DNA of 64,000 nt from an uncultured Acidobacteriota bacterium (GTDB taxonomy: Bacteria; Acidobacteriota; Thermoanaerobaculia; Multivoradales; UBA5704): assembly GCA_963698025.1 (NCBI GenBank), contig OY969112.1, positions 1,684,455 through 1,748,454 on the forward strand, written 5' to 3'. A program made the position numbers and the translations under genes. Under the pieces are notes generated by a model that saw only the letters and a list, made by a program, of their open reading frames with translations, was not told the origin of the DNA and did no database searches. Every line of letters begins with the position of its first letter. Positions within the stretch are counted from its first letter, which is position 1. Shown one piece after another: positions 4,007 through 50,484 of the stretch.

Positions 4007-4240
4007 ATGAGCAGAGCATCGGCAGCGGCACGGATCTGGCTCCTGGAAGAGGTTCGAGGACGCCGGTTAGGCCACGGCAAGGCCGCCGAGCTGGCGGGAG
4101 CTCCCCTTACGGATTTCCTTCGCCTGATGGGGGAGCACCACATCACTCCCTTTGACTTCGACGACGACGAGCTGGCGAGAGAGCTCGGTGCCGGGCCAGA
4201 ACCAAAAAAAGAGGCGCGCGACATTCGTCACGCGCCATGA
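4007..4240 (+). CDS. UPF0175-family small HTH protein (antitoxin-like, orphan)
   Basis: 'LGHGKAAELAG....FLRLMGEHHI....D.DEL..EL' pattern; TATACT 6 nt before the ATG. Confidence 0.7.
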   Translation: MSRASAAARIWLLEEVRGRRLGHGKAAELAGAPLTDFLRLMGEHHITPFDFDDDELARELGAGPEPKKEARDIRHAP

Positions 4241-4292
4241 ATGAGAGGAGGCTCCGCAGGAGGACCAGCGGGCGGCCGGCCCTCCTCGCGAT
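4203..4292 (-). ncRNA. Candidate sRNA A (hairpin, CCUCCUCUCAU, terminator)
   Basis: Minus strand: AGGAGGGCC..GGTCCTCCT stem, CCTCCTCTCAT, GGCGCGTGAC..GTCGCGCGCC stem, T7; no minus-strand gene ends here; 5' end approximate. Confidence 0.5.
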
Positions 4293-4477
4293 AGCCACTC
4301 AGTAGTAAGTTGCCGCACCCCCGGTTTTTTTGACACGGAATCGCAAAATCGATCCACGAAGTTGGACATCGGCGTCCACGGGCTTGGATTTACTCCCCTA
4401 CTTCCCCGCCTATCTCCCTCGGAGAGGGGCTGGAACCACTCTTGCTGTAGTCCTGGAAAACCGGGAGATCCAGACCC

Positions 4478-6991
4478 ATGCGAATGCCGCGACGCCTTGC
4501 TGTTGACAGCCTCCCCTTGCTGTTCGCCGTCTTTCTTCTCCCGCTCCCAAGCGGCGCCGCGACCGGGGGTGTAGCGGGCATGGTGGTGGACGGGAAAGGG
4601 AAGCCGGTCGCGGATGCCAGGATCGAGCTGACGCGGACCCCCGGTGGGTTTCCGCCCTCTTGTGGATGTTCCCAGGACCCGGAGATCTACCGCGCCCGCA
4701 CCGGTCCGACCGGCCGTTTTGAGGTTCGCGGCCTGCCCGCCTCCTGGTTCGAGCTGCGGATCGATCATCCGGCCTTCGCCCCCCTGATCCGGAAGGAGGT
4801 CGTCGTGCCGGACGCCGCCGGAGCGGTCGATCTCGGCAGGCTCACCCTGAATACCGGCAGGAAGCTCGACGGGATCGTGATCGACGGCGAGGGCCGGCCG
4901 CTGGCGAACACCGCGATCTGGATCCGGGATTCGGAACCCCGGCCGGAGGGGTACCCGTTCATCCAACGAGGCCCGCGGCAGGTTACGGGAGCCGACGGGA
5001 AGTTCTCGATTCCTATCGAGAAGGTGGAGGGCTTCGAGATCTATGCCTGCCGGCGCGACCGCTCGCGATTCACGTGGACGCTCGACGAGCTTCCTCAGCC
5101 TCTCCGGATCGTCCTGCCCTCCTCCGGACGCGTTCCCGGCCGGATCGTGGATCCGGAGGGGCACCCGGTTCCGGGCGCTCGGGTCTCGGCGGGGATGGCC
5201 GGGGGGACCTTCAGCGACTTCATCGACTCTTACGATCCCTGCCCGCAGAACGATCGTAGCGCCTCGGCCGTCACGGACGCGGAGGGACGGTTCGTCCTGG
5301 AGCCCATCGCGCAAGGTGCCTTCGGGGTCTGGGTATCCGCGGACGACTTCGTGCCGTACACACAGCAAGAAGTCGAGCTCGGAGGGGCGAGCGGCCTGCG
5401 GAATCTGGACATCGTTCTCCAGCGGGGCGCCGCCTCCCTCGCCGGCCAGGTCCGCACAGGGACCGGCGGAGCTCCGGTGCCTGGCGTCAGCATCTACTTG
5501 AGCTGCCAGGGAGGCCAATCGAGCACTTCGACGGGTCCTGACGGGCGCTACCGTCTGGGCAGTCTCACCCCCGGAGGAATGTGCCGCCTCTCGGCGCGCA
5601 GCGATCGGTTCAATGAGGTGGAGGCCACGGTCGAGGTCAAGGCCGCGGAGAACCATCTCGACCTTCAGCTCGTGCCCATCGAGACCCTGGAGATCCACGG
5701 CCGGGTGATCGGCCCCGCGAACGAGCCGGTCGCGGGCGCCGAGGTCGAGATCCGAAGCGCACTCGATGGAAAGAAGCATCTCACCGCCGCGGACGGCTCC
5801 TTCGCGGTGGAGACGTTCGCTGGAAGCACCGAATGCAGGCTTTCCGTCTGGAAGGACGGGTACGCCGCGTACCGCTCGCCAAACGTCAAGTGCGGCGAGG
5901 CTCCGGCGAAGGAGGGGGTGATCCGGCTGGAGCGGGCGCTCACCTTGACCGGACGTCTCCTCCATCTCAATCCGGAGCAGCTCAAGACCGCCCGGATCGC
6001 CGCGAACAATGAGTCTTTCCTCACTCCCCGTGCCAGCGTCTCCCCGGACGGGACCTATCGGATCGTGGACCTCGGCCCCGGCGAATGGAACGTGAGCGTC
6101 GTTGCCGGACGACGGATCGTCGAAGGCCATGTGACGCTGCGGCGCGGCCAGGACAACGCGACCCTCGATCTCTCCTTCCACACGCAGTTCCCGGTCCGCG
6201 GCCGGGTCTTCGGACCCGACGGCGAGGGGATCGCGGGCGCGTGGCTCAGTTTCAGAGGAGCGAAGTACTTCTCGGACCGGGCACGCACTCAGGGGGACGG
6301 ATCCTTCGAGATCCTGCTGGAGAACGGCTCCTATACGGTCCAAGTCAATGCGCCGTCTGGACCGTATGATTCGACCGAAGACCACTGGCACATCGACCTG
6401 CCCCCGATCCTGGTGGCGGACGCCCCGTTGGAGGGGATCGACGTCCACCTGAAGAAAGGCACGGCGCTCCACGGCTGCATTCCAGGTCTGCTCCCTGACG
6501 AGCACCCCGTGGTCCAGGCTTCCCACCAGGGCACCACCTGGACGTATACGATCAAGGCGGACGGGTGCTATCGGTTCAAGGACCTCGAACCCGGCGACTG
6601 GTCGGTCACCACGCAGCTCCGAACCGATTACCCCCAATTCTTCCGTGACGGGAAGGACCGGCAGGTCCAGAGTCACGTCACAGTGACGCCTGGAGCCTTG
6701 GAGACCGTTCTCGACCTGGATCTTGCCCTCGGCGACCGGACGCTGACCGTCCGTCCCACGGGGACGGAAAAGCCTGAAGGGCTCTTTTTGAGGCTGCTCT
6801 TCCCCGCGGGTGGAACCCTGATCGATTACGCGGGCCAGGAAGCGGATGGAGCGTTTCACGTCCCTCGGCTCCGGGCAGGGGACTACCGGATTCAGATCAT
6901 GGGCCCAAAAGACCGGGTCCTGCTGACGGGGTCCGTCGAGCTGACCTCGGACCAGGAGATGGTGGTCGATCTGCCGAAGGAGGACCGATGA
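4478..6991 (+). CDS. Secreted carboxypeptidase-regulatory-like (Cna-B/beta-sandwich) repeat protein
   Basis: Signal peptide; repeated 'G.V.D..G.PV.GA.V' and 'TD..GRF....L..G' modules. Confidence 0.85.
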   Translation: MRMPRRLAVDSLPLLFAVFLLPLPSGAATGGVAGMVVDGKGKPVADARIELTRTPGGFPPSCGCSQDPEIYRARTGPTGRFEVRGLPASWFELRIDHPAFAPLIRKEVVVPDAAGAVDLGRLTLNTGRKLDGIVIDGEGRPLANTAIWIRDSEPRPEGYPFIQRGPRQVTGADGKFSIPIEKVEGFEIYACRRDRSRFTWTLDELPQPLRIVLPSSGRVPGRIVDPEGHPVPGARVSAGMAGGTFSDFIDSYDPCPQNDRSASAVTDAEGRFVLEPIAQGAFGVWVSADDFVPYTQQEVELGGASGLRNLDIVLQRGAASLAGQVRTGTGGAPVPGVSIYLSCQGGQSSTSTGPDGRYRLGSLTPGGMCRLSARSDRFNEVEATVEVKAAENHLDLQLVPIETLEIHGRVIGPANEPVAGAEVEIRSALDGKKHLTAADGSFAVETFAGSTECRLSVWKDGYAAYRSPNVKCGEAPAKEGVIRLERALTLTGRLLHLNPEQLKTARIAANNESFLTPRASVSPDGTYRIVDLGPGEWNVSVVAGRRIVEGHVTLRRGQDNATLDLSFHTQFPVRGRVFGPDGEGIAGAWLSFRGAKYFSDRARTQGDGSFEILLENGSYTVQVNAPSGPYDSTEDHWHIDLPPILVADAPLEGIDVHLKKGTALHGCIPGLLPDEHPVVQASHQGTTWTYTIKADGCYRFKDLEPGDWSVTTQLRTDYPQFFRDGKDRQVQSHVTVTPGALETVLDLDLALGDRTLTVRPTGTEKPEGLFLRLLFPAGGTLIDYAGQEADGAFHVPRLRAGDYRIQIMGPKDRVLLTGSVELTSDQEMVVDLPKEDR

Positions 6992-8559
6992 GGACGCCGG
7001 GGCCGAGGTCTCTCTGCCTCCTTGCCCTGCTCCTGTCGGCCCCGCTGAGCGTGGCGGCCGGAGCCGCCCAACCAACAGCCTCGGCCAGCGGCGTCGAGAC
7101 CGGAAACCAGACGATGACGATCCGCCACCCGTCCGGCCAGGCGCGTCGCAAGCTGGCGGTGGCTCGCGGCGAAAACCGGCGGCCGGACCTGACCCTCGAC
7201 GACGACGAGATCCGTGAGATCCGGGGGCGCGTGACCGGACCGGACGGCGCGCCGGTCGCGGCCGCCGACGTCCGGATCGCGTCCCCCGCGGCTCTCCAAA
7301 CGGCAACGCAGGGTATGTCGACAGGTCCGGACGGCTCCTTTCGACTGAGCTTCCGGCGCGGTCTCTCCGGCGGTGACCCCATCGAGGTCGAGGCCGGCAA
7401 GCCGGGCTATCGGAAGCGGCTCCTGCGGCTCGATCCGGCCGTGGCGTTCCCGGACCCTCTCGAGATCCGGCTCGATCCCGGCATGCGCCTCACCGGGTAC
7501 GTCCTCGACTTCGATCCGGAGAGACTGGAAACCCTGTCCGTGGAAGCTCGCCAGGGCGAGGATCACTTCACGTCGCAGGTGAGCCGGGATGGAGAGTACC
7601 GGTTCGCCGGTCTGGATCCCGGAGACTGGACCGTCACGGCGGAGGACTACGGGATGGCGGAGGATTCCGAGCCTCATTGCGGCGCCGCCACGATAACCCT
7701 GGAGCCTGGAATGGAGGAGACCGTCCTGAATCTCCGGATGCTCTCCAAGGTCAAGGTCAAAGGGAGGGTCCTGGCGCCCGACGGCACGCCGGTCGGCGGC
7801 GCGATGGTCACCTTCCGTAACCTCGACGAGGGTGCCCCCGCCTGCGCGCAGGTTTTTGTGGCGCTCACCTACGACCAGAGCGACGGCGCCTTTTCGACCC
7901 AGATGCCGGAGGGGCGATACTCCGTGCTGGGGGACGTGCATGACTCGGGGGACTACGCTCCCAGGGTCCTGGAAACGCCGCTGACGGTCGCGGCCCTCCC
8001 CGTCGAGGACCTGGAGATCCGTCTCGAACCCGGCGGCAGTGTCAGCGGGCGGCTCCCCGGCCTGCTTCCCGAAGAGGCGGACGCCGTATCCATACGAGCC
8101 ACGGCCGGATCGGTCTCCCGTTCGGCCCAGGTCTCCGCCGACGGCACCTATCGCCTCGCCGGCCTGGGCCCCGGAGACTGGTCGATGGACGCCTCTCTCT
8201 ACCGGGATAGAGGCGTGAAGGAACTGGAAACCCGGACGAAGCTGGAGCCCGGGCAGACCGGGGCGCACCTCGACCTGGACCTCGTGGGGGAGCTGAGCCT
8301 CTCCCTCCACTTCGCCAGCGGCGACGAGCCGATCCAGCTCAAGATGCGGCTGTCGCGGTCCGACTCCCGAGGGGACCTGAGCGATAGCGCCGATCTCGCC
8401 GACCTCATGAACGCCGACCGCTACCGCTTCAGCCGGCTCCCGGCCGGGAGGTACCTCCTCAAGATCGAGGACGAGGGGCACCACCGGGAGCTCGAACGGT
8501 CGATCGACCTCTCATCCAGCCAGGAGATGACGATCGACCTGCTGGAAAAAGACCGCTGA
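6988..8559 (+). CDS. Secreted carboxypeptidase-regulatory-like repeat protein (paralog)
   Basis: ATGA overlap with the upstream gene; same module motifs; similar C-terminus (QEM..DL.....). Confidence 0.82.
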   Translation: MRTPGPRSLCLLALLLSAPLSVAAGAAQPTASASGVETGNQTMTIRHPSGQARRKLAVARGENRRPDLTLDDDEIREIRGRVTGPDGAPVAAADVRIASPAALQTATQGMSTGPDGSFRLSFRRGLSGGDPIEVEAGKPGYRKRLLRLDPAVAFPDPLEIRLDPGMRLTGYVLDFDPERLETLSVEARQGEDHFTSQVSRDGEYRFAGLDPGDWTVTAEDYGMAEDSEPHCGAATITLEPGMEETVLNLRMLSKVKVKGRVLAPDGTPVGGAMVTFRNLDEGAPACAQVFVALTYDQSDGAFSTQMPEGRYSVLGDVHDSGDYAPRVLETPLTVAALPVEDLEIRLEPGGSVSGRLPGLLPEEADAVSIRATAGSVSRSAQVSADGTYRLAGLGPGDWSMDASLYRDRGVKELETRTKLEPGQTGAHLDLDLVGELSLSLHFASGDEPIQLKMRLSRSDSRGDLSDSADLADLMNADRYRFSRLPAGRYLLKIEDEGHHRELERSIDLSSSQEMTIDLLEKDR

Positions 8560-8730
8560 GGCATGGACCGGCGCCGGAGCGCTCAGCTCCAGCACCGTCA
8601 CGGTGTCCGGCAGGGTCCGGGGGTGGCGGTGGGACAGGAAATACCAGACGACCAGGGCGAGCACGATCAGGGCCAGGAGCATCGCCCAGACGGGGATGCC
8701 CTTCTTCCGCGGGTTTCTGACTTCAGCCAT
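8512..8730 (-). CDS. Small single-TM membrane protein
   Basis: AGGAGG RBS; MAEVRNPRKKGIPVWAMLLALIVLALVVWYFL. Confidence 0.65.
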   Translation of the reverse strand: MAEVRNPRKKGIPVWAMLLALIVLALVVWYFLSHRHPRTLPDTVTVLELSAPAPVHASAVFFQQVDRHLLAG

Positions 8731-8756
8731 CGCAAACACCTCCTGGCAGCGAGAGC

Positions 8757-8772
8757 TGCAAGGGGCGGGCCG
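8757..8772 (-). promoter_or_regulatory. Probable sigma54 promoter for the small membrane protein
   Basis: CGGCCC-GCCCC-TTGCA with correct GG-N10-GC spacing. Confidence 0.5.
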
Positions 8773-8804
8773 AAATGAGCGGATCGGACCGGAATGAGTC
8801 GCGG

Positions 8805-9761: not shown

Positions 9762-9773
9762 TCGGCCTCCTAT

Positions 9774-12035
<2,262 letters not shown>

Positions 12036-12129
12036 CAGTTTGAATCCCTCCCCTGCCGGCACGGCCTTCGTGCCCGGCATCCGGCATTGTATTAGGATCT
12101 CGCCCAGGGAAGTCCGAAAGGAGACCGCC

Positions 12130-12903: not shown

Positions 12904-12911
12904 GTGGTTTC

Positions 12912-13367: not shown

Positions 13368-13575
13368 GGGGAGACTCCCCTCCCATAACCCGCGAAAAAA
13401 TCTCAAAGGGCGAGGCTCCCCTCCCAAGTTTTCTTCGAAAAGTTCGGAGGGGATCTCTCCCCTTCCAACTTTCCTTCCACAATTTCGAAGGGGAAGGCTC
13501 CCCTCCCAACTTTCTTCGCGGAATTTCGGAGGGCAGGCTTCCCTTTCGAGATTTTCGGCCGCAATCTCCAGAGAG
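13357..13575. repeat. Degenerate tandem array, 41-bp period, about 5.5 units
   Basis: AGGG core recurs at 13366, 13407, 13448, 13489 and 13530; each unit has an (G)AGGG..CCCCT(T/C)C palindrome plus an AT-rich half. Confidence 0.75.
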
Positions 13576-16757: not shown

Positions 16758-17645
16758 ATGCGCGTCATCTCGCTCGTCCCCAACGGCACGGAGATCCTGT
16801 TCGCGGTCGGCGCGGGGGACCTCGTGGTCGGCGTCAGCCACGAGTGCGACTATCCGGCGGCGGCGCGGACGCGGCCGATCCTCACCGGCAGCGCGCTGAC
16901 GCCGGGAATGAGCGCCGCCGAGGTGGACGCCGCCGTCTCCAGCCAGGTCGGGAGCGGCCTCAGCCTCTACACGCTCGACGAGGCGCGGATCGCCGAGCTG
17001 GCGCCGGACGTGATCGTCACCCAGCAGCTCTGCCCGGTCTGCGCCGTCTCGACGGAGCAGGTGGACGGCGCCGTCCGCCCCCTCCCCCGCTGCCCCGAGC
17101 TGGTGTCGCTCGACCCGCGGACGATCGGCGAGGTCTTCGCGGACATCCGCCGGGTGGGCGAGGTCACCGGCCACACGCCTGAGGCCGAAGCGCTCCTCGG
17201 CGACCTGGAGCGGCGGCTGGCGGCGGTGCGCGCGGCGGTCGCGGATCACTCCCGTCCGCGCGTGCTGGCGCTCGAATGGCTCGATCCGCCGTTCGCCGGC
17301 GGCCACTGGGTGCCAGAGATGATCGATCTCGCGGGGGGCGTCGACGCCGTCGCCGAGCCCGGCGGCCACTCCGCCCGCCTCACCTGGGAGCAGGTCGCGG
17401 CGGCGGACCCGGACGTGATCGTGGTCATGCCCTGCGGCTTCGACGAGGCGGGAGCCCGCGAGCAGATCGGCACGATCGCCGGCTGCCCCGAGTGGCGCGC
17501 GCTGCGGGCGGTGCGCGAGGGGCGGGTCCACCCCGTGGACGCCAACGGCTGCTTCAGCCGTCCCGGCCCACGGCTGGTGGACGGCATCGAGCGGCTGGCA
17601 GCAATCTTCCACCCGGCCGGAAATCCTCCGGCTCCATCCGTCTAA
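16758..17645 (+). CDS. Cobalamin/iron-siderophore substrate-binding family protein
   Basis: 'RVISLVP..TEILFA.G....VGVSHECDYP', 'SRPGPRLVDG.E.LA'. Confidence 0.9.
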   Translation: MRVISLVPNGTEILFAVGAGDLVVGVSHECDYPAAARTRPILTGSALTPGMSAAEVDAAVSSQVGSGLSLYTLDEARIAELAPDVIVTQQLCPVCAVSTEQVDGAVRPLPRCPELVSLDPRTIGEVFADIRRVGEVTGHTPEAEALLGDLERRLAAVRAAVADHSRPRVLALEWLDPPFAGGHWVPEMIDLAGGVDAVAEPGGHSARLTWEQVAAADPDVIVVMPCGFDEAGAREQIGTIAGCPEWRALRAVREGRVHPVDANGCFSRPGPRLVDGIERLAAIFHPAGNPPAPSV

Positions 17646-17676
17646 ACCTTCAAGGCCCGACCGGGGTCTATCAGTT

Positions 17677-17780
17677 CTGCGGGGAGGGCTCAGCGTGAAC
17701 CCGATCCGCAGGCTGGTCCCCCAGACCGGCCTCCTCGTCAGACGCTCTCGGCACCGACCGCACGAGAGCGTCCTTTTTCT
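17677..17780 (+). ncRNA. Candidate sRNA B (two hairpins, CCUCCUC, terminator)
   Basis: CTGCGG..CCGCAG stem; GCTGGTC/GACCGGC stem; CTCCTC at 17731-17736; GACGCTCTCG/CGAGAGCGTC plus T5; upstream AAACCT-N17-TCTAT. Confidence 0.5.
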
Positions 17781-17789
17781 ATGGGGGGA

Positions 17790-17914
17790 CCCTCATCACC
17801 CCGGCCCTCTTCTCCCGACCCGGGAGAAGAGGGAGAAAAACGCCGGATCAAGGGGGTTGATGGCGGGCGGGGGTGCCCCTCTCCCGGGTCGGGAGAGGGG
17901 GTCAGGGGTGAGGG
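17790..17914. repeat. CCCTC-ACCCC/GGGAGAGGG palindromic intergenic repeat (REP/MITE-like), copy 1
   Basis: Terminal inverted CCCTCA..CCCC / GGGGTGAGGG; same family at 21406, 52658 and 58282. Confidence 0.8.
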
Positions 17915-17915
17915 C

Positions 17916-19535
17916 CTACCGCGGCGGTTCCTGCGGGTAGATCCCCGGCTCTTCCCACCGCGGCTCGGCCGGGCTGGTCAGGGGGTCGGTCAGCGGCAGG
18001 GGCTCCACCGGCAGGGTGGGGGACCCCGGCGGCACCGGAGCTCCCCGCTGTGGCCAGTAGCCGGGCGCGAGCCCGAGCCGGGCCAGGAGGACGGCGCCGA
18101 AGCCCATGACCAGGGCGGTCGTCGTGATCAGCGCTCCGAACAGCGAGGTCACGAACCCGAAGATCCCCAGAGGCCCGGGCAGCAGGTCGAGCAGATTGCC
18201 CAGCACATGCCAGCCCTGCAGCGCCACGACGCCCACCAGGGCCGCGGCATAGGGACCGCCGAAGCCGCGGTTGAAGCGGGTCTCCAGAAAGCGCCCCAGC
18301 CGGTACGCCGCCGCGGCGTAGCCGAGCAGGAGGAGCAGCCCCACGTAGAGGAAAAGGAACGGGTAGAGCAGGAACAGCACGCAGCCGACGATGGTGATCG
18401 CCAGCAGGATCGTCACCACGATCAGCAGCGGCCAGAAGAAGATCGAGCCCAGGAGCCCCACCAGCGCCGCCCGCCACGGCTGCGCCGTGAGCTGACGGTC
18501 CACCCGCTCGAGCGGCCGGCGCGCCACCAGTACCACCAGGCAGACCAGCAGACCGGTGAGGATGAGGCTCATCAGGCTGCCCAGCAGGTCGGACACGCCG
18601 TTCCAGAGGCCCCAGTGGCCGCCCCAGAGAGGACCGGTCCGGAAGCCCCGGTGATGGCGCAGGAAGGGGAGCATGCCGACCTGGGATTTGGCGCCCTGGA
18701 TCACCGAGCCCGGCTCCTGCTCGATGCTGCCGCCGACGCTGGTGACGTCCCCCTCGACGACCGCGTGGGGACCGAGATAGACGCTGCTGCCGACGCTGAC
18801 CACGTCGCCGCCCACCCTCCCCTCGATGCGCACCGGGCCGCCGATGGCGGTGACGTCGTGGCTCACCTCCCCCGCCACCTCGACCGAGCCGCCGACCGCG
18901 ACCGCTTCGTCGGCCGTCTCGTCGCGCCGCACGCTGACGCTGCCGCCCACGTTCACCCGGCTGCCGGAAGTGTGGCGCTCCGCGGACCTGGGCGGCACCG
19001 GGGGCTCAGGAGCCTCGACCGTGGGCTCGGTCTCGGTCACGTCGGTGTCGGAGGTCGCCTCCTCCGAGGTCTCCGGCTCCGCCGCGGAGGTCTCGGGCGT
19101 CGCGGCCGGCGGCTTGGCGGCGGTCTCCTCGCCGAGCCCGAGGAGCTGGCGCTGATCGGCGGCGGAGAGACCCTGCAGACGGATCACCGCGTCGGCATCC
19201 ACGCCAAGCCAGTCGCGAAGGATATGCGCGTTCACCGGCTCGCCGTTGACGGCGATCTGGCCGCCGGTCACCTCGATGGTGCGGATGCCCGCCTTGGCCT
19301 GGCGGGGCTTGAGCAGAACGCCGCCGCTGACCGGCAGCACCTCGTAGCGGCTTTCGAGCGCCCGGCGAAGATCGCTCTTCTCCTGCGCCGTGGCCGGGGG
19401 GCGGTCGGTGGATTGCGGAGCCGGCGCGGCGTACGCCGCACCGGTGAAGGCAAATCCGAGAACGAGAAGGAGGATCGCCGCGGCTTGCGGGGATCTCTTC
19501 CCGAAGAATCGCCGGAAACGGTCAGGGGTCCACAT
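17916..19535 (-). CDS. Membrane protein with bactofilin-like beta-helix and multi-TM C-terminus
   Basis: 'VAVGGSVEVAGEV..DV.AIGG.V.I.G.V.GDVVSVG' repeats, Pro/Glu/Thr linker, about 6 TMs. Confidence 0.82.
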   Translation of the reverse strand: MWTPDRFRRFFGKRSPQAAAILLLVLGFAFTGAAYAAPAPQSTDRPPATAQEKSDLRRALESRYEVLPVSGGVLLKPRQAKAGIRTIEVTGGQIAVNGEPVNAHILRDWLGVDADAVIRLQGLSAADQRQLLGLGEETAAKPPAATPETSAAEPETSEEATSDTDVTETEPTVEAPEPPVPPRSAERHTSGSRVNVGGSVSVRRDETADEAVAVGGSVEVAGEVSHDVTAIGGPVRIEGRVGGDVVSVGSSVYLGPHAVVEGDVTSVGGSIEQEPGSVIQGAKSQVGMLPFLRHHRGFRTGPLWGGHWGLWNGVSDLLGSLMSLILTGLLVCLVVLVARRPLERVDRQLTAQPWRAALVGLLGSIFFWPLLIVVTILLAITIVGCVLFLLYPFLFLYVGLLLLLGYAAAAYRLGRFLETRFNRGFGGPYAAALVGVVALQGWHVLGNLLDLLPGPLGIFGFVTSLFGALITTTALVMGFGAVLLARLGLAPGYWPQRGAPVPPGSPTLPVEPLPLTDPLTSPAEPRWEEPGIYPQEPPR

Positions 19536-19538
19536 GGG

Positions 19539-20090
19539 TCAATTCCTCTCACCCGTCGATGGGTCGCGGAGATAGCTGGTCACGGAGAGCTGGTCACGGA
19601 GATAACGGAACGCCAGGCTCGAAGCGAGCAGAGCGGCCACCAGGATCGCCATCACCTGCGGCACCGCGAGCGGCTGGGCGAGCGCCCGGACGATCGTCAG
19701 CAGGAGGTCCCAGAGGCGCAGGAGCGAGGCCAGCCCGTGAGCCGCCTCGGCCGTCGCCCGGATCCCGGTCCGCACCAGGCCGCCGACCGACCAGAGCCCC
19801 GCCAGGGCGCTCAGCACCGGCGGCAGCCAGAGCGCGCCGAAGCCGGTGGCGGCGAGGCAGAGCGCGAGCACGATCCGCAACGGACGCCAGGCGAACGGGT
19901 CCGCCGGCGCGGCCGCCGGCAGCCCGGCCCGGACGAGCACCCGGTCGGCGAAGCCGGCCGGAGGCGCGGCCATGGTGACCTCAGGCAGCGCCTCGAACAG
20001 CGCGAGCAGAGCGGCCTCGGCCTCGCCGGTCCGGTCGTTCCGCTCGGCGTCGAGCCAGCGGTCCAGTGCGTCTTGGTGGGAATGGCGCAT
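19539..20090 (-). CDS. Probable membrane anti-sigma factor
   Basis: AGGAG RBS; 'PPAGFADRV' motif typical of anti-sigma proteins; TMs; directly follows the ECF sigma gene. Confidence 0.7.
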   Translation of the reverse strand: MRHSHQDALDRWLDAERNDRTGEAEAALLALFEALPEVTMAAPPAGFADRVLVRAGLPAAAPADPFAWRPLRIVLALCLAATGFGALWLPPVLSALAGLWSVGGLVRTGIRATAEAAHGLASLLRLWDLLLTIVRALAQPLAVPQVMAILVAALLASSLAFRYLRDQLSVTSYLRDPSTGERN

Positions 20091-20112
20091 CCATCGTTCT
20101 CCTATGAACGCC

Positions 20113-20715
20113 CTACGAGGCCGCCGCCCGGCCGGTTTCACCGGGTCCCCACCCGGAGCCGGCCATCTCCTGGGCGAGCTCCTTGCGCGCCCGGTGGAGG
20201 TTCGTCTTCACGGTGCCGAGCGGCAGGCCGGTGACCTCGCAGATCTCCTGATACGAGGCGCCGTGGACGTAGAACATCAAAACCGCCTCCCGGTAGTCCG
20301 GGCGCAGGTGGGAGATGGCGCGCTCGAGCGACCGCGCGAGGTCCCGCCGCTCCGCCCTGGCGTGCGGGCTGGCGACCGTCTCGTCGGCGAGGACGGCGGC
20401 GAGGCTCCCGCGGTCGTCGTCCGCCCCGGTCTCCAGCGGCACCGTCTCCAGCACCCCGCGGCGGAGGTGGTCGATGGTCGTGTTGTGCGCGATCTTGAAC
20501 AGCCAGCTCGAGAACTTCCACCCCGGGTCGTAGGTGTCGAGGCGCCGGAACGCCTTGACGAAGACCTCCTGCGCCAGGTCCTCGGCGGTGGCGGAGTCCT
20601 GGACCATGCGCAGCACCAGGCTGTAGACGGGGCGCTCGAACCGCGTCACCAGCTCGCGGCAGGCGTCCTGCGAGCCCCGGAGGGCGCTGGTGACCAGCTC
20701 GGCGTCGGTTCTCAT
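20113..20715 (-). CDS. ECF RNA polymerase sigma factor (SigW/SigE-like)
   Basis: 'AEDLAQEVFVKA', 'FSSWLFKIAHN..ID.LRR', 'GTVKTNLHRAR'. Confidence 0.95.
   Translation of the reverse strand: MRTDAELVTSALRGSQDACRELVTRFERPVYSLVLRMVQDSATAEDLAQEVFVKAFRRLDTYDPGWKFSSWLFKIAHNTTIDHLRRGVLETVPLETGADDDRGSLAAVLADETVASPHARAERRDLARSLERAISHLRPDYREAVLMFYVHGASYQEICEVTGLPLGTVKTNLHRARKELAQEMAGSGWGPGETGRAAAS
20114..20140 (-). promoter_or_regulatory. SigW-type ECF promoter inside the sigma gene 3' end
   Basis: TGAAAC-N17-CGTA on the minus strand, upstream of the anti-sigma start. Confidence 0.55.
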
Positions 20716-20743
20716 TCCTTCTCAGATACCATCCGGTCCCAGA

Positions 20744-20769
20744 TACGGCCCCCCGGCCCCCGGGTTGCG
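20744..20769 (-). promoter_or_regulatory. Candidate autoregulatory ECF promoter
   Basis: CGCAAC-N16-CGTA upstream of the sigma ATG. Confidence 0.5.
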
Positions 20770-20839
20770 CCTCCCCTTGTGGCGGGGTGCTAGACTCCCC
20801 GCAAATCCCCAGTGCCAACTTTTGCCGGAGGATATCCCG

Positions 20840-21403
20840 ATGCGCATCGCCACGACCGCCCTCCTTACCCTGTCTCTCGCTTTGCCAGCCCTGCCGGCCG
20901 GCGCCGCCTCGCTCGCCGGAGCCACCCTGCCCGACAAGGTCGAGGCCGGGGGGCAGACCCTGGTGCTCAACGGCCTGGGCCTGCGCTCGAAGTTCTTCAT
21001 CAAGGTATACGTCGGCGCCCTCTATCTCCCCCAGAAGGAGAAGGCCGCGGCCAAGGTGATGGCGCAGGACGCGCCGCGCCGCATGGTCATGCACTTCCTC
21101 TACGGCGTCAGCAAGGAGCAGATGTGCGACGCCTGGAAAGAGGGGCTGGAGCAGAATACCCCCAAGGCGGCGGCCGACGTCAAGAAGTCGTTCGCCACGC
21201 TCTGCGGCTGGATGGAGCCGATCCCGAAGGGGAACGAGCTGGTGCTGACCTACACCCCCGGCAAGGGGACCGAGGTCGAGGTCAACGGCAAGTCGAAGGG
21301 GACCCTCGACGGCAAGCCCACCGCCGACGCCGTCCTCGGCACCTGGATCGGACCGGATCCCGGCCCGGGCGGGGACTTCAAGAAGGCCGTGCTCGGGGGG
21401 TAG
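20840..21403 (+). CDS. Chalcone-isomerase-like secreted protein
   Basis: GGAGG RBS, signal peptide, 'LVLNG.GLR.KFFIKVYVGALYL'. Confidence 0.9.
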   Translation: MRIATTALLTLSLALPALPAGAASLAGATLPDKVEAGGQTLVLNGLGLRSKFFIKVYVGALYLPQKEKAAAKVMAQDAPRRMVMHFLYGVSKEQMCDAWKEGLEQNTPKAAADVKKSFATLCGWMEPIPKGNELVLTYTPGKGTEVEVNGKSKGTLDGKPTADAVLGTWIGPDPGPGGDFKKAVLGG

Positions 21404-21405
21404 GG

Positions 21406-21610
21406 CCCTCATCACCCCGGCCCTCATCACCCCGGCCCTCATCTCCCGTCCCCTCCCGCCCTCCCTCACCGGGAGAAGAGGGAGCTGAAATCTTCCTCTC
21501 CCGGAACGGGGGAGGAACCAGATCGCCGCTCCATCCCCCACACCCCAAAGAATTTCTCCCTCTCCCGGTGAGGGAGGGCGGGAGGGGACGGGAGAGGGCC
21601 GGGGTGAGGG
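21406..21610. repeat. CCCTC/GAGGG palindromic repeat, copy 2 (with internal 15-bp tandem)
   Basis: CCCTCATCACCCCGG twice, ending GGGGTGAGGG; near-identical arms to 58282-58452. Confidence 0.8.
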
Positions 21611-21622
21611 CTCGCGGCACCC

Positions 21623-21687
21623 AAAAAAAGAAGGAGCGCGTTGCGCTCCTTTTTTGGGAGGGATGAGAGGAGGATTTGCCTCCCCGC
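21623..21687 (-). ncRNA. Candidate sRNA C (about 65 nt)
   Basis: Consensus-like sigma70 promoter; GCGGGGAGGCAAATCCTCCTCTCATCCCTCCC; AAGGAGCGC/GCGCTCCTT terminator plus T7; no ORF. Confidence 0.7.
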
Positions 21688-21694
21688 AAGAGGA

Positions 21695-21723
21695 ACAGTA
21701 GACCTCTCATAGCGAGTTGTCAA
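21695..21723 (-). promoter_or_regulatory. sigma70 promoter of sRNA C
   Basis: TTGACA-N17-TACTGT. Confidence 0.75.
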
Positions 21724-21741
21724 TATGAATCCTCTATTTTC

Positions 21742-22554
21742 TTAGCGGAAAGCGAGAGTCGCCAGGATCACCCCCGCCAGGATCACCCGGTAGACCACGA
21801 AGACCGTCAGGTCCCGCCGCCGCAGCCAGGCCAGCAGCCAGGCGATCACCCCGTAGCCGACCACCGCCGAGACCACCAGGCCGATCGCCATCGGCACGAG
21901 TTGGGCCGCTCCCGCGCCGGCGTCCATCAGGTCCTTGGCCGACTTCAGGGCGGCCAGCACGCTGATCGGGATGGCGAGCAGGAAGCTGAACCGGGCCGCC
22001 GACGGCCGCATGAAGCCGAGCAGCAGGGCGGCGGTGATGGTGATCCCGGAGCGCGAGGTGCCGGGGATCAGGGCCAGCGCCTGGGCGCAGCCGATCACCA
22101 CGCCGTCCATCATCGTGATCTGGTCCATGCCGCGGACCTTGCGGCCGATGCGGTCGGCCACGAAGAGGAGGATGGCGTAGACGAGAGTCGTGCCCGCGAT
22201 CACCTGCGGGGTGCGGAGGTGGGCCTCGATCCAGTGCTTGGCGAGCAGCCCGGCGATGCCGGCGGGGATGGTGCCGACGATGATCGCCCAGGCCACCGGG
22301 CGGGGGGCGAACTCGCCGTCGTGGGAGCGCGGGGCGCCGGTGAAGAAGCCGGTGATCAGGTCGCGCACGTCGCGGTGGAAGTAGGCGAGGACGGCCAGCA
22401 GGGTCCCGGTGTTGGTGGCGATGTCGAAGTCCAGCCCCTGGTCGGGCCAGTGGAGGAAGTAGGGCACCAGGATCAGGTGCCCCGAGGAGCTGACGGGCAG
22501 GAACTCGGTGAGCCCCTGGACGATGCCGAGGACGATGGCCTGGAATGCGGTCAC
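21742..22554 (-). CDS. uppP: Undecaprenyl-diphosphate phosphatase
   Basis: 'GIVQGLTEFLPVSSSGHL', 'PGTSRSG.TI'. Confidence 0.96.
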   Translation of the reverse strand: MTAFQAIVLGIVQGLTEFLPVSSSGHLILVPYFLHWPDQGLDFDIATNTGTLLAVLAYFHRDVRDLITGFFTGAPRSHDGEFAPRPVAWAIIVGTIPAGIAGLLAKHWIEAHLRTPQVIAGTTLVYAILLFVADRIGRKVRGMDQITMMDGVVIGCAQALALIPGTSRSGITITAALLLGFMRPSAARFSFLLAIPISVLAALKSAKDLMDAGAGAAQLVPMAIGLVVSAVVGYGVIAWLLAWLRRRDLTVFVVYRVILAGVILATLAFR

Positions 22555-31718: not shown

Positions 31719-32045
31719 ATGCATCAGAAGGAGGCGGAGACCGGGCAGTGCCGAAAGGCTAGAACCCAACTTGTCGAGCACCTCCAGAAGAAGCTTTACG
31801 GCCGTGCCACGTGGGAAACACAAGGTCTTCGCCAACACGAAAGACCAGAGTGTCGCGTTCTCCCGTGCATGCCCGGCTGTGAAGCCCATCCGAGAGCCGG
31901 ATGCGGGAGATCCGCAAGTCCGGTTCGATGAGCGGCGGTGGAAAAAGGAGCTACGGCCGAGACTGAGGCACCGGAATCAGGACGAAAGCCGCCGACAACA
32001 ACAACTCCCTCGGCCTACGGGTACCGCGCCCGCCGTCGACTCTAC
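31719..32045 (+). mobile_element. Group II intron remnant (domains V and VI, possible maturase scar)
   Basis: DV GAGCCGGATGCGGGAGATCCGCAAGTCCGGTTC (31894-31926) with AGC triad; DVI with bulged A, ending GACTCTAC at 32045. Confidence 0.85.
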
Positions 32046-41600: not shown

Positions 41601-41649
41601 AGAAGACAGCCGCCTTCGAGAGATGAAGACGGCTGTCAAGCCACGGGAA

Positions 41650-42852: not shown

Positions 42853-42918
42853 GATGCCGAAGTTGAAACCATGATGATTGTAGCCAGGCGGATCTATATT
42901 CCAAGCTTAATCCGATCT

Positions 42919-42960
42919 CTGATTTTAAATGGGTACCCCCTGATTTTAAATGGGTATCCC
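42919..42960. repeat. AT-rich 21-bp direct repeat, two copies
   Basis: CTGATTTTAAATGGGTACCCC / CTGATTTTAAATGGGTATCCC. Confidence 0.8.
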
Positions 42961-43072
42961 ATGGCGCCATCGCCGGCGCACCTCATGCAAGCGGTGCCGC
43001 AGCAATGATTTCTCTATTGCGGATTTTACCGCGGGTTTTACTGCGGCTTTCGCGCGCCGGCTGGAGGCGGAT

Positions 43073-45295: not shown

Positions 45296-45332
45296 CGATC
45301 AAACTGGCCGGGAACTAAGGAGGGACCTGGTC

Positions 45333-46102
45333 TTAGCCGCCGCTCGCCGCCGTCTTCGCCGTCCCCTTGGTCTTGGCCTTGAGGTAATCCCGATTCATCC
45401 GGGCGATGAAGTCGATCGAGATCTCCTTCGGGCAGACGGCTTCGCATTCGGCGTAGTTGGAGCAGTAGCCGAAGCCCTCCTGGTCCATCGCCTCGACCAT
45501 CGAGAGGGCGCGGTCGAAGCGCTCGGCCTGCCCCTGCGGCAGCATGTTGAGGTGCGAGACCTTGGCGGAGGTGAAGAGGTTCGCCGCGCCGTTCGGACAC
45601 TGGGCCACGCAGGCGCCGCAGGCGATGCACTGGGCGGCGTCGAAGGCGCGGTCGGCGATCGGCTTGGGGATCGGCGTCAGGTTGGCCTCCGGCGCGCTGC
45701 CGGTCGAAACCGAGATGAAGCCGCCGGACTGGACGATGCGGTCGAAGGCGCCGCGGTCCACCACCAGATCCTTGATCACCGGGAACGCCCGGGACCGCCA
45801 CGGCTCGACGTGCAGCACGTCGCCGTCCTTGAAGTGGCGCATGTGGAGCTGGCAGACGGTGGTGGCCGGCATCGGCCCGTGCGCCTCGCCGTTGATCATG
45901 AAGCCGCAGGAGCCGCAGATCCCCTCGCGGCAGTCGTGCTCGAAGGCGATCGGCTCCTCGCCGCGCTCGGCGAGCTGCTCGTTGAGGATGTCCAGCATCT
46001 CGAGGAAGGAGGCGTGCTCGTTGACGTCCCTGGCCTCGTATTTGACCATGCGACCCTCGTCCGCGGGGCCCCTCTGACGCCAGACGTGGAGAGTCAGGTT
46101 CA

Positions 46103-46103
<1 letters not shown>
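45333..46103 (-). CDS. sdhB: Succinate dehydrogenase/fumarate reductase Fe-S subunit
   Basis: [32 protein letters not shown]. Confidence 0.96.
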
Positions 46104-48043
<1,940 letters not shown>

Positions 48044-48055
48044 TCGCGCGCGCTC

Positions 48056-48769
48056 CTAACGGACCAGGCCGGTCAGCACGGCCAGGGGAAACGAGATGTT
48101 GCCGATCGTGATGATCCAGGCGAAGGCGTGGGCGAAGCCGCTGCGCCAGCGGTTGAAGCGCGGCTGGTTCCAGCCGAGCGACTGGAACAGGCTCCACAGC
48201 CCGTGGTAGAGGTGGAAGCCGAGCGCCACCTGGGCCAGGATGTAGAACAGCGCCACGTACCAGAGCGAGAAGCTGGCGACCACGTTGTGGTAGACGTCCC
48301 CCTCGACGTAGTTGGGGTTGACGACGCCGGCGGTGAAGTCCAGCAGGTGATAGATGACGAACAGGAGCACGATCACCCCGCCCCAGCGCATGGTGCGCGA
48401 GGCGTAGGTGGTGTGGATCTTGGGGCGGACCGCGTAGCTCCGCGGCCGCGCCGCCCGGCTCATCCGCGCCAGCTGCCAGGCGGCCCAGATGTGCAGGAGG
48501 ACCGCGGCCAGCAGGACGACGCGGACGATCCAGAGCGCTCCGTAGTCCGGGAGCGCCGGCGATCCCACGTGGCGCAGGAAGGTGCCGTAGGCGTTGAGGT
48601 AGCGAACCCCCTCGCCGGTCTCCCCCGGCGCCTTGTAGAGGCCGGGCTCGTACAGCTTCAGGTTGCCGATCAGGTGCAAGACGATGAAGCCGAAGAGGAC
48701 GATGCCGGTGACGGCCATCACCGCCTTCTTGCCCACCGCGGATCGATAGAGATCAGAGAACCAGGACAT
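48056..48769 (-). CDS. sdhC: Succinate dehydrogenase cytochrome b558 subunit (5-TM)
   Basis: 'VGKK.VMAVTG', conserved His residues, 'HL.HG.WS.FQSLG'. Confidence 0.94.
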   Translation of the reverse strand: MSWFSDLYRSAVGKKAVMAVTGIVLFGFIVLHLIGNLKLYEPGLYKAPGETGEGVRYLNAYGTFLRHVGSPALPDYGALWIVRVVLLAAVLLHIWAAWQLARMSRAARPRSYAVRPKIHTTYASRTMRWGGVIVLLFVIYHLLDFTAGVVNPNYVEGDVYHNVVASFSLWYVALFYILAQVALGFHLYHGLWSLFQSLGWNQPRFNRWRSGFAHAFAWIITIGNISFPLAVLTGLVR

Positions 48770-48838
48770 GGGGTTTCCTCATCGGAAGCTCGGACCGGCT
48801 CCTATCCTATGCCAGGGGCTTCCGGTTTGTGAAACCTG

Positions 48839-50194
48839 TCACAAGGGGGGACGGCGGCGGCGGCGGCGGCGCGGTCGCGCGCCGGCCTCGCTCTCGGCCG
48901 GCGCCTTGAGCGGCGGCCGGCGGCGGGCGGCGGCCTGCCAGGCGGCGAGCGCCTCGGTCCCCTCTCCCGTGGCCAGGACGAGGATCTCGAACAGGAACAG
49001 GGCATCGTCGAAGTAGGGCTTGCGGGCGAGCTTCTGCCGCTCGTGGGGGGTGCCGCCCGGCTCGCACAGGCGCTGGAATCCCATCAGCGCGTGGAACACC
49101 TGCTGGGCCCGCAGGTTGGAGAGGGTGAGACGGGAGAAGAACGGCGCGATCTCCTCCTGGATCAGGGTCTCGATCTCCGGCCGGCTCATCGGCTTGCCAT
49201 CCAGGGCCTCGACGTCGAGCCGCCTGAGCATGACCTTGGGCAGCAGCAGGGCGGCGAGGAGGCCGGTGTCGGAGAGCGGCCGGTCGGCGGCCACCATGCG
49301 GTCGATCACCGGCAGGATCTGCCCGAAATCCCCCAATCCGCGCGCACCGGCGGTCAGCATGGCGTAGGCCTCGGGGATCAGCACCTGCAGCAGGTCGAGC
49401 TCCAGCATCCACTGCATGGCGGCGCCGGCGCGCCCGCACTTGAGGAGCTGGACGATCTCCTCGGTCACCCGCGCCGGCGAGGCCTTTTCGAGCTCCTTGC
49501 TGTGGCGATGGATCGACTCCTGGGTTTTGGTCTCGATGCCGAATCCCATCCGCCCGGCGAACTCGCAGGCGCGCAGCATCCGCACCGGATCCTCACGGAA
49601 TCGCAGGTCCGGATCGCCGATGGCGCGGATCAGCTTGCGCTCGAGGTCCTCGATGCCGCCGACGTGGTCGATGACCGAGTAGTCGCCGACGCTGTAGAAC
49701 AGGGCGTTGACCGTGAAGTCGCGGCGGAAGGCGTCCTGCCGGGGGGTGCCGTAGGTGTTGTCGCTGGTGATCAGCAGCTCCCCCGGCTCCCCCCGCTGCT
49801 CCTCCGGATCGGGGTCGCGGCGGAAGGTCGAGACCTCGACGGTGCTGCCGTCGTGGAAGAAGACGTGCACCAGCCGGAAGCGCCGGCCGATGATCCGCGA
49901 GTTGGAGAACAGGCGCCGGATCTCGTTTGGCTTGGCGTTGGTGCCGATGTCGAAGTCTTTGGGCGTGCGTCCCATCATGAGGTCGCGCACGCTCCCCCCC
50001 ACCAGGTAGGCCGCATAGCCCGAATTGTGGAGGCGGTAGAGGACCTTGAGAGCGTTCTTGTCGATATCCCGGCGGGAGATGGGGTGCTCGGCGCGAGCCA
50101 GGATGCGCGGCTCCACCTCGGCGTTCTCGCTCACGGGTTGGTGGCTCACGGGTCGCTGGCTCACGGGTGGATCATAAGGGGCGTGGACTGACAT
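48839..50194 (-). CDS. pcnB: Poly(A) polymerase I
   Basis: 'VGG.VRD....PKDFD', PAP signature 'IIGRRFRLVHV', RRDFT.NA, EDPVRMLRA, basic tail. Confidence 0.93.
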   Translation of the reverse strand: MSVHAPYDPPVSQRPVSHQPVSENAEVEPRILARAEHPISRRDIDKNALKVLYRLHNSGYAAYLVGGSVRDLMMGRTPKDFDIGTNAKPNEIRRLFSNSRIIGRRFRLVHVFFHDGSTVEVSTFRRDPDPEEQRGEPGELLITSDNTYGTPRQDAFRRDFTVNALFYSVGDYSVIDHVGGIEDLERKLIRAIGDPDLRFREDPVRMLRACEFAGRMGFGIETKTQESIHRHSKELEKASPARVTEEIVQLLKCGRAGAAMQWMLELDLLQVLIPEAYAMLTAGARGLGDFGQILPVIDRMVAADRPLSDTGLLAALLLPKVMLRRLDVEALDGKPMSRPEIETLIQEEIAPFFSRLTLSNLRAQQVFHALMGFQRLCEPGGTPHERQKLARKPYFDDALFLFEILVLATGEGTEALAAWQAAARRRPPLKAPAESEAGARPRRRRRRRPPL

Positions 50195-50303
50195 CGATAA
50201 ACAGCTATATCTTGCAACGCAAGGGATTTAGCGCTCCCGGAAGCGGTCCGAGGGCGCAGGCCAGACTCTATCGGGGTCCGACAAGGGAGGCAAGCGGGGG
50301 GAG

Positions 50304-50484
50304 AAAAAAAGAGGGCCGAGGCGGGCGGAGGGCATTAAGACCCGCCCCGGCACCGGAGGGAGAGGAGATTGCCTTGCTATCTTCTTCGCCGCCGCGGCGG
50401 CTTCGCAGCCTCTCCGCGGCGTCTGTCTTCGGGTTCAAAGATCCGCCGGCTCCGCCCGTCCTCGCATCCACCCGGCTCTTGCCA
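50304..50484 (-). ncRNA. Candidate sRNA D (about 180 nt)
   Basis: Minus strand: hairpins, CTCCTCTCCCTCC, GCCGGGGCGGG..CCCGCCTCGGC stem plus T7; upstream TGGCAC-GGTTC-GTGGA (imperfect -12) and an IHF-like tract; 5' end approximate. Confidence 0.5.

Follow-up and report, generated by a model that had tools for sequence, protein, structure and literature searches.

Candidate small RNA genes with C/U-rich, anti-Shine-Dalgarno-like tracts and differing promoter types in a Thermoanaerobaculia genome

Results

Four sRNA-like units with a common layout

The 64,000-nt stretch of DNA analysed here, called the window throughout, spans positions 1684455-1748454 of G000:C1, the single contig of a 7.05-Mb genome (68% GC) from an uncultured bacterium of the class Thermoanaerobaculia (Acidobacteriota). 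Four units in the window, A to D, resemble small RNA (sRNA) genes: each carries a C/U-rich tract with CUCCUC directly 5' of a GC stem and a T-run. The units and their motifs lie where a first-pass annotation of the sequence had placed them, and the layout that it described holds in all four. A contains GCGAGGAGG and CCTCCTCTCAT, B contains GCGGGGAGG and CCTCCTC, C contains GCGGGGAGG and CCTCCTCTCAT, and D contains GCGAGGACG and TCTCCTCTCCCTCC. The terminators of A and C rank as the two best in a scan of 3.5-22.5 kb, and a terminal GC hairpin with a U-run is also predicted by folding for B and D. The 11-mer common to A and C, CCTCCTCTCAT, has only five copies on both strands of the 7.05-Mb genome, the remaining three being at unrelated sites.

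Genome-wide, CTCCTC is found within 30 nt upstream of 12 of 292 strict terminators, and CCTCCTC of 6. The control interval from -90 to -61 of the same 292 terminators yields 3 and 2 occurrences, and random 30-mers contain the two words at rates of 2.6% and 0.9%. The C/U tract is thus not a general terminator feature, and the objection allowed for in the first-pass annotation, that CUCCUC might be as frequent before other terminators as before these, does not apply. The second motif proposed for the layout, a 5' GCG(A/G)GGA(G/C)G, stands in part: it is conserved as a hairpin arm in C and partly so in A, but varies in homologues of B, is variable or absent in homologues of D, and is a common word with 1917 genome copies.

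We compared the units with 24 congeners and with 16 genomes of other families; a set of 30 congeners was used for a further gene, E, described below. All four units are conserved in related genomes in the manner of independent sRNA genes, each with an invariant C/U tract and with compensatory changes in its stems. No coding potential was seen: the body of C has no start codon, and the indels among homologues of B and D are not multiples of three. Conserved promoter elements accompany C, B and D (none was recognised for A), which supports the proposal of discrete sRNA-like genes with promoters of their own. The promoters differ in type, sigma-70 for C, extracytoplasmic function (ECF) for B and sigma-54-like for D, an earlier assignment that comparison with relatives upholds, albeit with a non-canonical -12 element in D. 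On this comparative evidence the four units are very likely real, independently transcribed sRNA genes.

Unit C

The features of C and its neighbourhood are as follows.

21623..21688, minus strand: sRNA C (about 65 nt), from sequence, fold, unpaired probabilities and conservation
21685-21679 and 21673-21667, minus strand: hairpin 1, GGGGAGG paired with CCUCCUC, predicted fold
21673-21656, minus strand: invariant 18-mer CCUCCUCUCAUCCCUCCC, 3' half predicted unpaired
21651-21631, minus strand: terminator stem with U-run to 21623, predicted fold
21695..21723, minus strand: promoter, -35 TTGACA at 21723-21718, 17-nt spacer, -10 TACTGT at 21700-21695
21742-22554, minus strand: uppP/BacA
20690-21403 (also given as about 20840-21403), plus strand: gene for a secreted Chalcone_3-domain protein, convergent with C
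20113-20715, minus strand: ECF sigma factor gene
19539-20141, minus strand: probable anti-sigma factor gene

The promoter lies directly 3' of the uppP stop codon, with an A/T-rich stretch in front of its -35. A 241-nt query matched all 24 congeners, a tally inflated by a REP-like repeat (see below) in the query; matches to the sRNA itself were seen in 22 of them. In an alignment of 15 same-genus loci, ATTCATATTGACAA is invariant and is followed by a variable spacer of 17 nt, a -10 element TAnnnT and about 7 variable nucleotides. The 36-nt body GCGGGGAGGCAAATCCTCCTCTCATCCCTCCCAAAAA is then 100% invariant, while the terminator loops vary and the downstream flank is unalignable. Promoter, hairpin (with variable loops) and the 18-mer CCUCCUCUCAUCCCUCCC are kept in 5 genomes of four other families of the order. 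An exact scan of the Genome Taxonomy Database (GTDB) species representatives for this 18-mer returned at least 119 loci. The full layout is present in 85 of the 119 listed, mostly metagenome-assembled genomes (MAGs) of Thermoanaerobaculia/Acidobacteriota in which it lies downstream of uppP. All 106 copies with enough upstream sequence have TTGAC, and in 99 of them TTGACn-N16-18-TAnnnT stands 7-11 nt from the hairpin.

We built a covariance model of C (R1), to which 62 distinct homologues were aligned. Helix 1 is 98.6% paired in this alignment, and 8 of 9 terminator pairs vary on both sides; the observed covariation was reached by none of 500 shuffles. Substitutions in helix 1 are restricted to G-U to A-U and A-U to G-U changes and, since the 3' arm is invariant, occur in the 5' arm only. 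The model scores C itself at 94.1 bits, and C is single copy in the genome. Two other genome matches at 17 bits were discarded, one lying in a nonribosomal peptide synthetase-like gene and one at an ordinary gene terminator. A search of an even sample of the class, run with stricter Infernal filters, returned C in 6 of 151 genomes, from families f1, f2 and f4, plus one weak match in f14.

The genes around C (window 19539-22554) form a cluster that recurs across families, in about 80 of 105 loci. uppP lies upstream on the same strand as C in 80 of the 105, at a median of 66.5 nt from the last aligned UppP codon. The Chalcone_3-domain gene is convergent with C in 80 of 105 loci (median 57 nt) with a bidirectional terminator in common, and an ECF sigma gene is near C in 84. 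In 5 loci the cassette is inverted, with C after the Chalcone_3 gene and a degenerate -10. An open reading frame (ORF) at 20138-21541 on the minus strand, considered as a gene downstream of C, was rejected, its translation being an antisense-frame artefact of the Chalcone_3 gene. Some Thermoanaerobaculia MAGs carry two C-type copies in tandem, separated by about 200 nt and each preceded by a promoter (loci L103, 4206-4461, and L122, 1152-1442). At loci L114 and L121 the 18-mer stands just past the end of an IstB-like (IS21-type) gene, with neither sRNA promoter nor terminator.

Dispersed repeats resembling repetitive extragenic palindromes (REP), built of GGGAGAGGG...CCCTCTCCC palindromes, flank B and C at window 17790-17900 and 21405-21622. 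They have very many copies in the genome and the genus, and draw spurious microRNA matches in Rfam. A related strain's contig is without the 216-nt block 21405-21622, which is therefore an insertion polymorphism.

Unit A

The following features were assigned to A.

4203..4322, minus strand: sRNA A, 5' end undefined, same-genus alignment and fold
4322-4303, minus strand: conserved block GGGGGTGCGGCAACTTACTA, alignment
about 4297-4252, minus strand: covarying hairpin, consensus fold
4251-4241, minus strand: the 11-mer, with invariant AGCCUCCUCUCAUUC, alignment
4236-4213, minus strand: terminator stem, with U-run at 4210-4204, fold

A is present at full length in 6 of the 24 congeners. Its consensus fold contains 3 pairs with compensatory changes, the hairpin reading CCGG/CCGG in some and TTGG/CCAA in others; no variation affects AGCCTCCTCTCATTC, and G-C pairs of the terminator are found replaced by U-A. 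Upstream of the hairpin stands a conserved block, GGGGTGCGGCAACTTACTA. Conserved GTGTCAAAAAAA corresponds to TTGACA on the opposite strand, where it may serve the divergent gene. Sigma-70, sigma-54 and ECF readings were tried on the alignment and none fitted, which leaves the promoter of A unrecognised, as it was at first. No co-directional gene lies upstream, and the terminator overlaps the 3' end of an ORF of the UPF0175 family (antitoxin-like) on the opposite strand (window 3803-4240, plus).

With filters off, A is the best non-self match of R1 in the window, the antisense of the C terminator aside (15.0 bits, E value 0.0028). The model aligns it as GCGAGGAGG, a 29-nt insert and CCUCCUCUCAUUC, so that A resembles C with an expanded loop. 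The 11-mer and layout in common, together with this match, make A probably a divergent paralogue of C. In a genome-scale search with R1, A is absent among the matches listed at E values up to 1; the link between A and C is thus suggestive only.

Unit B

B is preceded by a gene in whose end its promoter is embedded.

16758-17645, upstream of B: Peripla_BP_2 gene (Pfam), of which the TAA of the B promoter is the stop codon
17619..17645, plus strand: ECF-type promoter, GGAAAT at 17619-17624, 14 nt, CGTCTAA at 17639-17645, 17-locus alignment
17652..17783, plus strand: sRNA B (about 130 nt) with four hairpins, fold and alignment
17730-17736, plus strand: CCUCCUC, fold
17741-17772, plus strand: terminator stem, then U-run, fold

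ECF sigma factors of the RpoE type recognise a -35 resembling GGAAC and, about 16 bp away, a -10 resembling CGTC/TCTAA. The promoter of B, GGAAAT-N14-CGTCTAA, agrees with this consensus: all 17 aligned loci have the same CCGTCTAAAC, a GGAAT/GAAAT/GAAAA-like -35 stands about 15-16 nt upstream, and the coding sequence between the two elements drifts. The motifs of B are placed as in the first-pass annotation, but since the stop codon of the preceding gene falls within the promoter, the RNA probably starts near 17652 and not at 17677.

B was found in 16 of the 24 congeners and in none of the 16 other-family genomes. A search of 5 further genomes, including two from other genera of its own family, did not find it either. 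Synteny with the upstream gene is kept in 15 of 16 loci. Compensatory changes affect 7 of 24 consensus pairs, GACCGGCCUCCUC and GACCGGCCTCCTC are invariant, and UCCUCGUCA is predicted to be unpaired with a probability of at least 0.97.

Genome-wide, the composite promoter motif is found at 4 sites, that of B included. The others, matching GGAAA(T/G)-N14-15-CGTCTAA, are at G000:C1:5638988 and 6138108 (plus) and 1924467-1924492 (minus). Two of these precede ATG-initiated ORFs (one of 320 aa) by about 50-65 nt, which suggests that the motif marks a small ECF regulon. The ECF sigma gene 2.3 kb away (20113-20715) was considered as the regulator of B and set aside; its own upstream region is without the B motif.

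Unit D

Unit D and its upstream region comprise the following.

50304..50484, minus strand: sRNA D (about 181 nt), fold and alignment
50375-50304, minus strand: 3' module with CAAUCUCCUCUCCCUCC at 50371-50355, terminator 50351-50315 and U-run 50310-50304
50496..50510, minus strand: sigma-54-like promoter, TGGCAC at 50510-50505, N5, -12 region gTGg at 50499-50496
50545-50534, minus strand: A/T-rich block CTGAAAACAAAG, 20-locus alignment, possibly IHF-like (integration host factor)
50619-50581, minus strand: block CACCCCCGTCA..CA.GGGACA..CGTCC, 20-locus alignment, possibly enhancer-like

Sigma-54 promoters combine TGGCAC at -24 with a TTGC at -12 whose GC stands 11 bp away. In D, CTGGCA(C/T)G..(T/C)C.TG is kept in all 20 aligned loci while its flanks vary; the -24 element is TGGCAC in 19 and TGGCAT in the remaining one. 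As the -12 element is without the consensus C, the promoter is termed sigma-54-like, a designation we consider likely to be right from the alignment. TGGCACG-N3-CGTG has 8 sites on both strands and is not enriched genome-wide, about 10 being our estimate, from base composition, of the number expected by chance. The enhancer-like and IHF-like roles of the two upstream blocks are ones we presume from the general architecture of sigma-54 promoters. The +1 predicted from the promoter, 50484, coincides with the start that had been given first.

D is present in 22 of the 24 congeners and in 0 of the 16 other-family genomes. Its 5' body is variable, the length from promoter to U-run ranging over 108-215 nt among relatives, and its last 72 nt are nearly invariant (89% mean column identity, 20 loci). 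The hydrolase-OsmC and PolyA_pol genes flank it in every case; the latter is downstream on the same strand, with matches in 19 of 20 loci. Past the terminator the flank is not conserved except for a CTTGCC-like -35 for the next gene. A weak D-like BLAST match in another genus of the family was rejected, as it falls in coding-like sequence.

One family or several

The four units had been proposed as copies of a single homologous family, and this part of the first-pass annotation is not supported. R1 gives A 15 bits, scores D at 12 bits with hairpin 1 misplaced onto the D terminator, and yields no match to B at E values up to 10. By these scores C is a member of the C family, A a borderline relative, and B and D non-members. 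C has the purine arm, loop, invariant CCUCCUCUCAUCCCUCCC and terminator of the family, and A is without CCCUCCC. A four-way alignment (RNAalifold) retains only a 7-bp helix, formed by the G-rich segment and the C/U tract, and a model from all four units would for that reason be meaningless. The taxonomic ranges also differ among the genomes sampled: C is found in several families, B and D in the genus only. Judged by sequence and structure, the four units are at least three families, namely C with its probable paralogue A, B, and D.

A fifth C/U-rich sRNA-like gene, E, lies outside the window at about G000:C1:5444650-5444772 (plus; loci L197 and L199-L212) and is present in 29 of 30 congeners. 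Its conserved features are CTAAACA, which is invariant, the hairpin CCGTATAGATGGATGGAGACGG and, before the terminator, an invariant tract CAAUCUCCUCUCC(A)AACCUCCCUCCUCCAAAA, also given as AGACAATCTCCTCTCC(A)AACCTCCCTCCTCCAAAA; no promoter type was recognised. A 13-mer common to D and E has 3 genome copies, the third within a histidine-kinase gene. With only the 7-bp helix in common and R1 missing B and D, the genes are best described as a functional class of C/U-seed sRNAs, in which A/C and D/E form seed pairs, on at least three unrelated scaffolds. Also outside the window, at G000:C1:3790600-3791210 (plus, locus L198), is a tandem pair of sRNA-like units that resemble each other, each about 190 nt long. 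Both follow a consensus sigma-54 promoter (GGCAC-N5-TTGCA) and have a C-rich tract and terminator at their end.

Genomic setting and pairing searches

The 16S rRNA has a canonical 3' end, GGATCACCTCCTTTCT. Upstream of 3098 starts predicted by crude gene calls, AGGAG occurs in 488 (106 in controls) and GGAGG in 435 (102 in controls), each about 4-fold enriched. The genome encodes rpoN and an Hfq protein (PF17209 match, 58.5 bits, G000:C1:6347200-6347382). Two features looked for in Hfq-dependent sRNAs are thus present, a 3' intrinsic terminator with its U-tail and an Hfq gene. In C, UCCCUCCC is predicted to be exposed, with an unpaired probability of at least 0.97.

We examined the pairing of the four seeds with candidate start regions by RNAduplex. 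The mean duplex energy for C is -11.7 kcal/mol at starts versus -10.5 kcal/mol in gene interiors, and for B it is slightly worse at starts. The top matches are mostly G-rich, repeat-like sequence and doubtful starts. The Chalcone_3 gene was rejected as a specific target of C: its ribosome-binding site (RBS) shows ordinary Shine-Dalgarno (SD) complementarity only, with GGAGG in 63 of 83 loci.

A separate observation concerns locus L108:3900-4260 (minus), which holds a tandem array of four small, precursor-peptide-like ORFs (MRVKT.LKAGG..., 16-18 aa). The RBS of one of them is a perfect 18-nt complement of the C segment; this is absent from G000. The genome of L108 also carries a C-type sRNA at L116, and L117 holds the same 18-mer context.

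Discussion

Proposed action of the RNAs and evidence against it

Each unit would be transcribed from a promoter of its own, of sigma-70 type for C, ECF type for B and sigma-54-like for D, with that of A unassigned, and each RNA would end in an intrinsic terminator directly behind the invariant C/U-rich tract with CUCCUC. We propose that the products act in trans as base-pairing sRNAs, probably helped by Hfq. The C/U tract would be the seed; its pairing with G-rich, SD-like sites would make mRNAs less stable or less well translated. Such anti-SD action is plausible, given the 16S 3' end, the enriched SD motifs, the Hfq gene and the exposed tracts in C and B. In C, A and E an SD-like purine arm is predicted to sequester the 5' half of the tract in a hairpin, leaving the 3' half exposed; a half-masked tract would suit pairing that begins at a toehold and then opens the hairpin. 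The different sigma factors may correspond to different input signals. Taken as a whole, the statement that these are four sRNA genes of at least three families which pair with SD-like sites has, in our estimate, a probability of about 0.6. Transcription, Hfq dependence, the targets and the sigma factors as separate inputs are what we infer from sequence.

Several results weigh against this proposal. CCUCCUC itself is base-paired in C (unpaired probability 0.02), and the tract of D is mostly paired in the predicted ensemble. RNAduplex with the four seeds gave no separation between 17,937 candidate start regions and 2,448 gene-internal windows. Complementarity to the tract is not specific to RBSs, because GAGGAG is a common in-frame word (Glu-Glu) in a genome of 68% GC. 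The complement of the C 18-mer has no genome site with fewer than three mismatches except its own antisense, and a long single duplex therefore does not explain the invariance of the 18-mer. The gene calls are crude (4125 genes, 76% of the genome covered). In the promoter of D only the TG of the -12 element is conserved, the consensus C being replaced by G, A or T across the 20 loci. Among the listed sequencing runs that hold window 17500-21900, none is on record as RNA; four runs examined yielded contigs alone, which cannot show RNA ends, and the one of them labelled metatranscriptomic gave nothing of use for B or C.

Alternative explanations

The units might instead be cis-acting modules of the flanking genes, either 3' untranslated regions (UTRs) with terminators or leader attenuators: the 3' UTRs of uppP (C) and of the Peripla_BP_2 gene (B), and an element between hydrolase-OsmC and PolyA_pol (D). 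We regard this as unlikely, although the arrangement of the genes lends it some weight. In 80 of 105 loci C follows UppP on the same strand, the median gap of 66.5 nt being too small for a separate uppP terminator; B begins at the stop codon of its upstream gene, with synteny in 15 of 16 loci; the PolyA_pol gene invariably follows D on the same strand, with matches in 19 of 20; and in the 5 loci where C stands behind the Chalcone_3 gene its -10 is degenerate. The promoter elements of C, B and D are nevertheless held at fixed spacing while the sequence from the -10 to the body drifts, and an invariance of 15-36 nt is more than a terminator requires. Upstream of A no gene runs in the same direction, B cannot be a leader because the next gene is convergent with it, and the flank beyond the D terminator is unconserved apart from the CTTGCC-like -35 of the next gene. 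A cis-acting role can moreover coexist with the sRNA reading, as in 3'-UTR-derived sRNAs that have their own promoters.

A similarly low likelihood attaches to the idea that the RNAs act on protein or ribosome, as decoys or sponges titrating an RNA-binding protein or the 30S subunit. It would account for an 18-mer of C that is invariant across several families in a genome without a long complementary target, for a hairpin that pairs an SD-like with an anti-SD-like arm and admits only pairing-preserving G-U to A-U switches, and for the unspecific duplex energies to targets. Yet no known protein-binding motif was identified, the multi-target seeds of base-pairing sRNAs are generally invariant too, and seed, terminator, U-tail and Hfq together make up the classic base-pairing design. 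Less probable still is the descent of all four units from one ancestral sRNA gene. The CUCCUC before the terminator and the G-rich 5' segment in all four, the 7-bp helix from RNAalifold, and the 11-mer and layout common to A and C speak for such an origin. The R1 scores (15 bits for A, a misaligned 12 bits for D, no match for B at E values up to 10) speak against it, as do the differing lengths (65 to 181 nt), hairpin numbers and promoters, the lack of conservation of the 5' G-rich motif within the B and D families, and the unequal ranges observed, several families for C versus the genus only for B and D. Trans-acting, base-pairing sRNAs of several families remain the reading that we prefer.

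Relation to known sRNAs

A close likeness is to the cuckoo RNAs of Alphaproteobacteria (RSs0680/CcsR1-4 and the SmelC397/NfeR1 group), which have a C/U-rich anti-SD-like motif as their only conserved sequence, on stems that vary; they occur in several copies per genome under stress-sigma (RpoHI/HII) control and bind Hfq, and RBS occlusion has been proposed for them (PMC4615179). A C/U-rich anti-SD-like tract and several units per genome are common to both groups. The cuckoo motif CCUCCUCCC, located in the loops of 2-4 adjacent hairpins (PMC4615179), has no counterpart here: CCTCCTCCC is in none of the four units, which read CCTCCTCTC (A, C), CCTCCTCGT (B) and TCTCCTCTCCCTCC (D). As to the loops, the tract of C forms the 3' arm of hairpin 1 plus linker, and those of A, B and D are linker or pre-terminator stem. 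The phylum differs as well, and none of the four units has a cuckoo Rfam match at E values up to 5.

A scan of the window with Rfam 15 at gathering thresholds returned none of the four units; its only match was Intron_gpII, a group II intron domain V/VI (RF00029) at 31892-32045 on the plus strand, with 42.4 bits against a threshold of 40. MmgR/suhB (RF00519) is the sole Rfam sRNA family that aligns to any unit, namely to the C/U tract and terminator in the 3' part of A. At 19.8 bits and an E value of 2.8, against a gathering threshold of 41 bits, this is resemblance and not membership. Other matches at the four loci in the E-value scan are sub-threshold, mostly to microRNA models, and fall on neighbouring repeat or flank sequence.

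Parallels in promoter type and gene context are found among better-known sRNAs. The envelope-stress sRNAs of enterobacteria MicA, RybB and MicL depend on sigma-E, and the MicL promoter lies inside cutC. B likewise has an RpoE-like ECF promoter and a MicL-like embedding in the 3' end of the upstream coding gene, without sequence or Rfam similarity. Qrr1-5, GlmY, CrcZ and NrsZ are sigma-54- or enhancer-dependent. D is like them in its TGGCAC at -24, in palindrome-like and A/T-rich blocks about 25-110 nt upstream, and in a conserved 3' seed module behind a variable 5' body; it differs in a -12 that has only TG in place of the consensus GC, and shows no sequence similarity. DapZ and CpxQ exemplify sRNAs embedded in 3' UTRs, with an own promoter or released by processing. 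C, B and D also lie directly 3' of a co-directional coding gene with a terminator in common, C differing in its own near-consensus promoter in 99 of 106 copies. The first-pass annotation had called the RNAs undescribed; they have no match in Rfam 15, and we found no description in the literature searched. They are new sRNA families of a known kind, the C/U-rich anti-SD sRNAs.

Implications

A bolder interpretation, to which we assign a low probability, is that Thermoanaerobaculia run a sigma-factor-partitioned set of mimics of the 16S tail, with at least five unrelated scaffolds in the genome and CCUCC-type tracts half-masked in toehold fashion. If this were true, distinct stresses would converge on a global, tunable throttling of SD-dependent translation and not on gene-specific regulation. 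The core effector would then be the 18-nt module of C, which does not vary across at least five sampled families of the order and would recur on other scaffolds.

Very little is known of riboregulation in Acidobacteriota: a 2022 review gives, in its Table 1, 4 distinct annotated sRNAs for the whole phylum (PMC9029176). The present analysis adds at least three, probably four, new sRNA families together with gene models (promoter, structure and seed), and these could be added to Rfam. C contributes an 18-nt segment that is invariant in more than 100 uncultured soil and sediment genomes and tied to a uppP/ECF envelope cluster. B and D contribute alternative-sigma promoters. Together the families offer testable entry points into the sigma-54 and ECF regulons, and into post-transcriptional control, of a soil lineage that is abundant but opaque to experiment.

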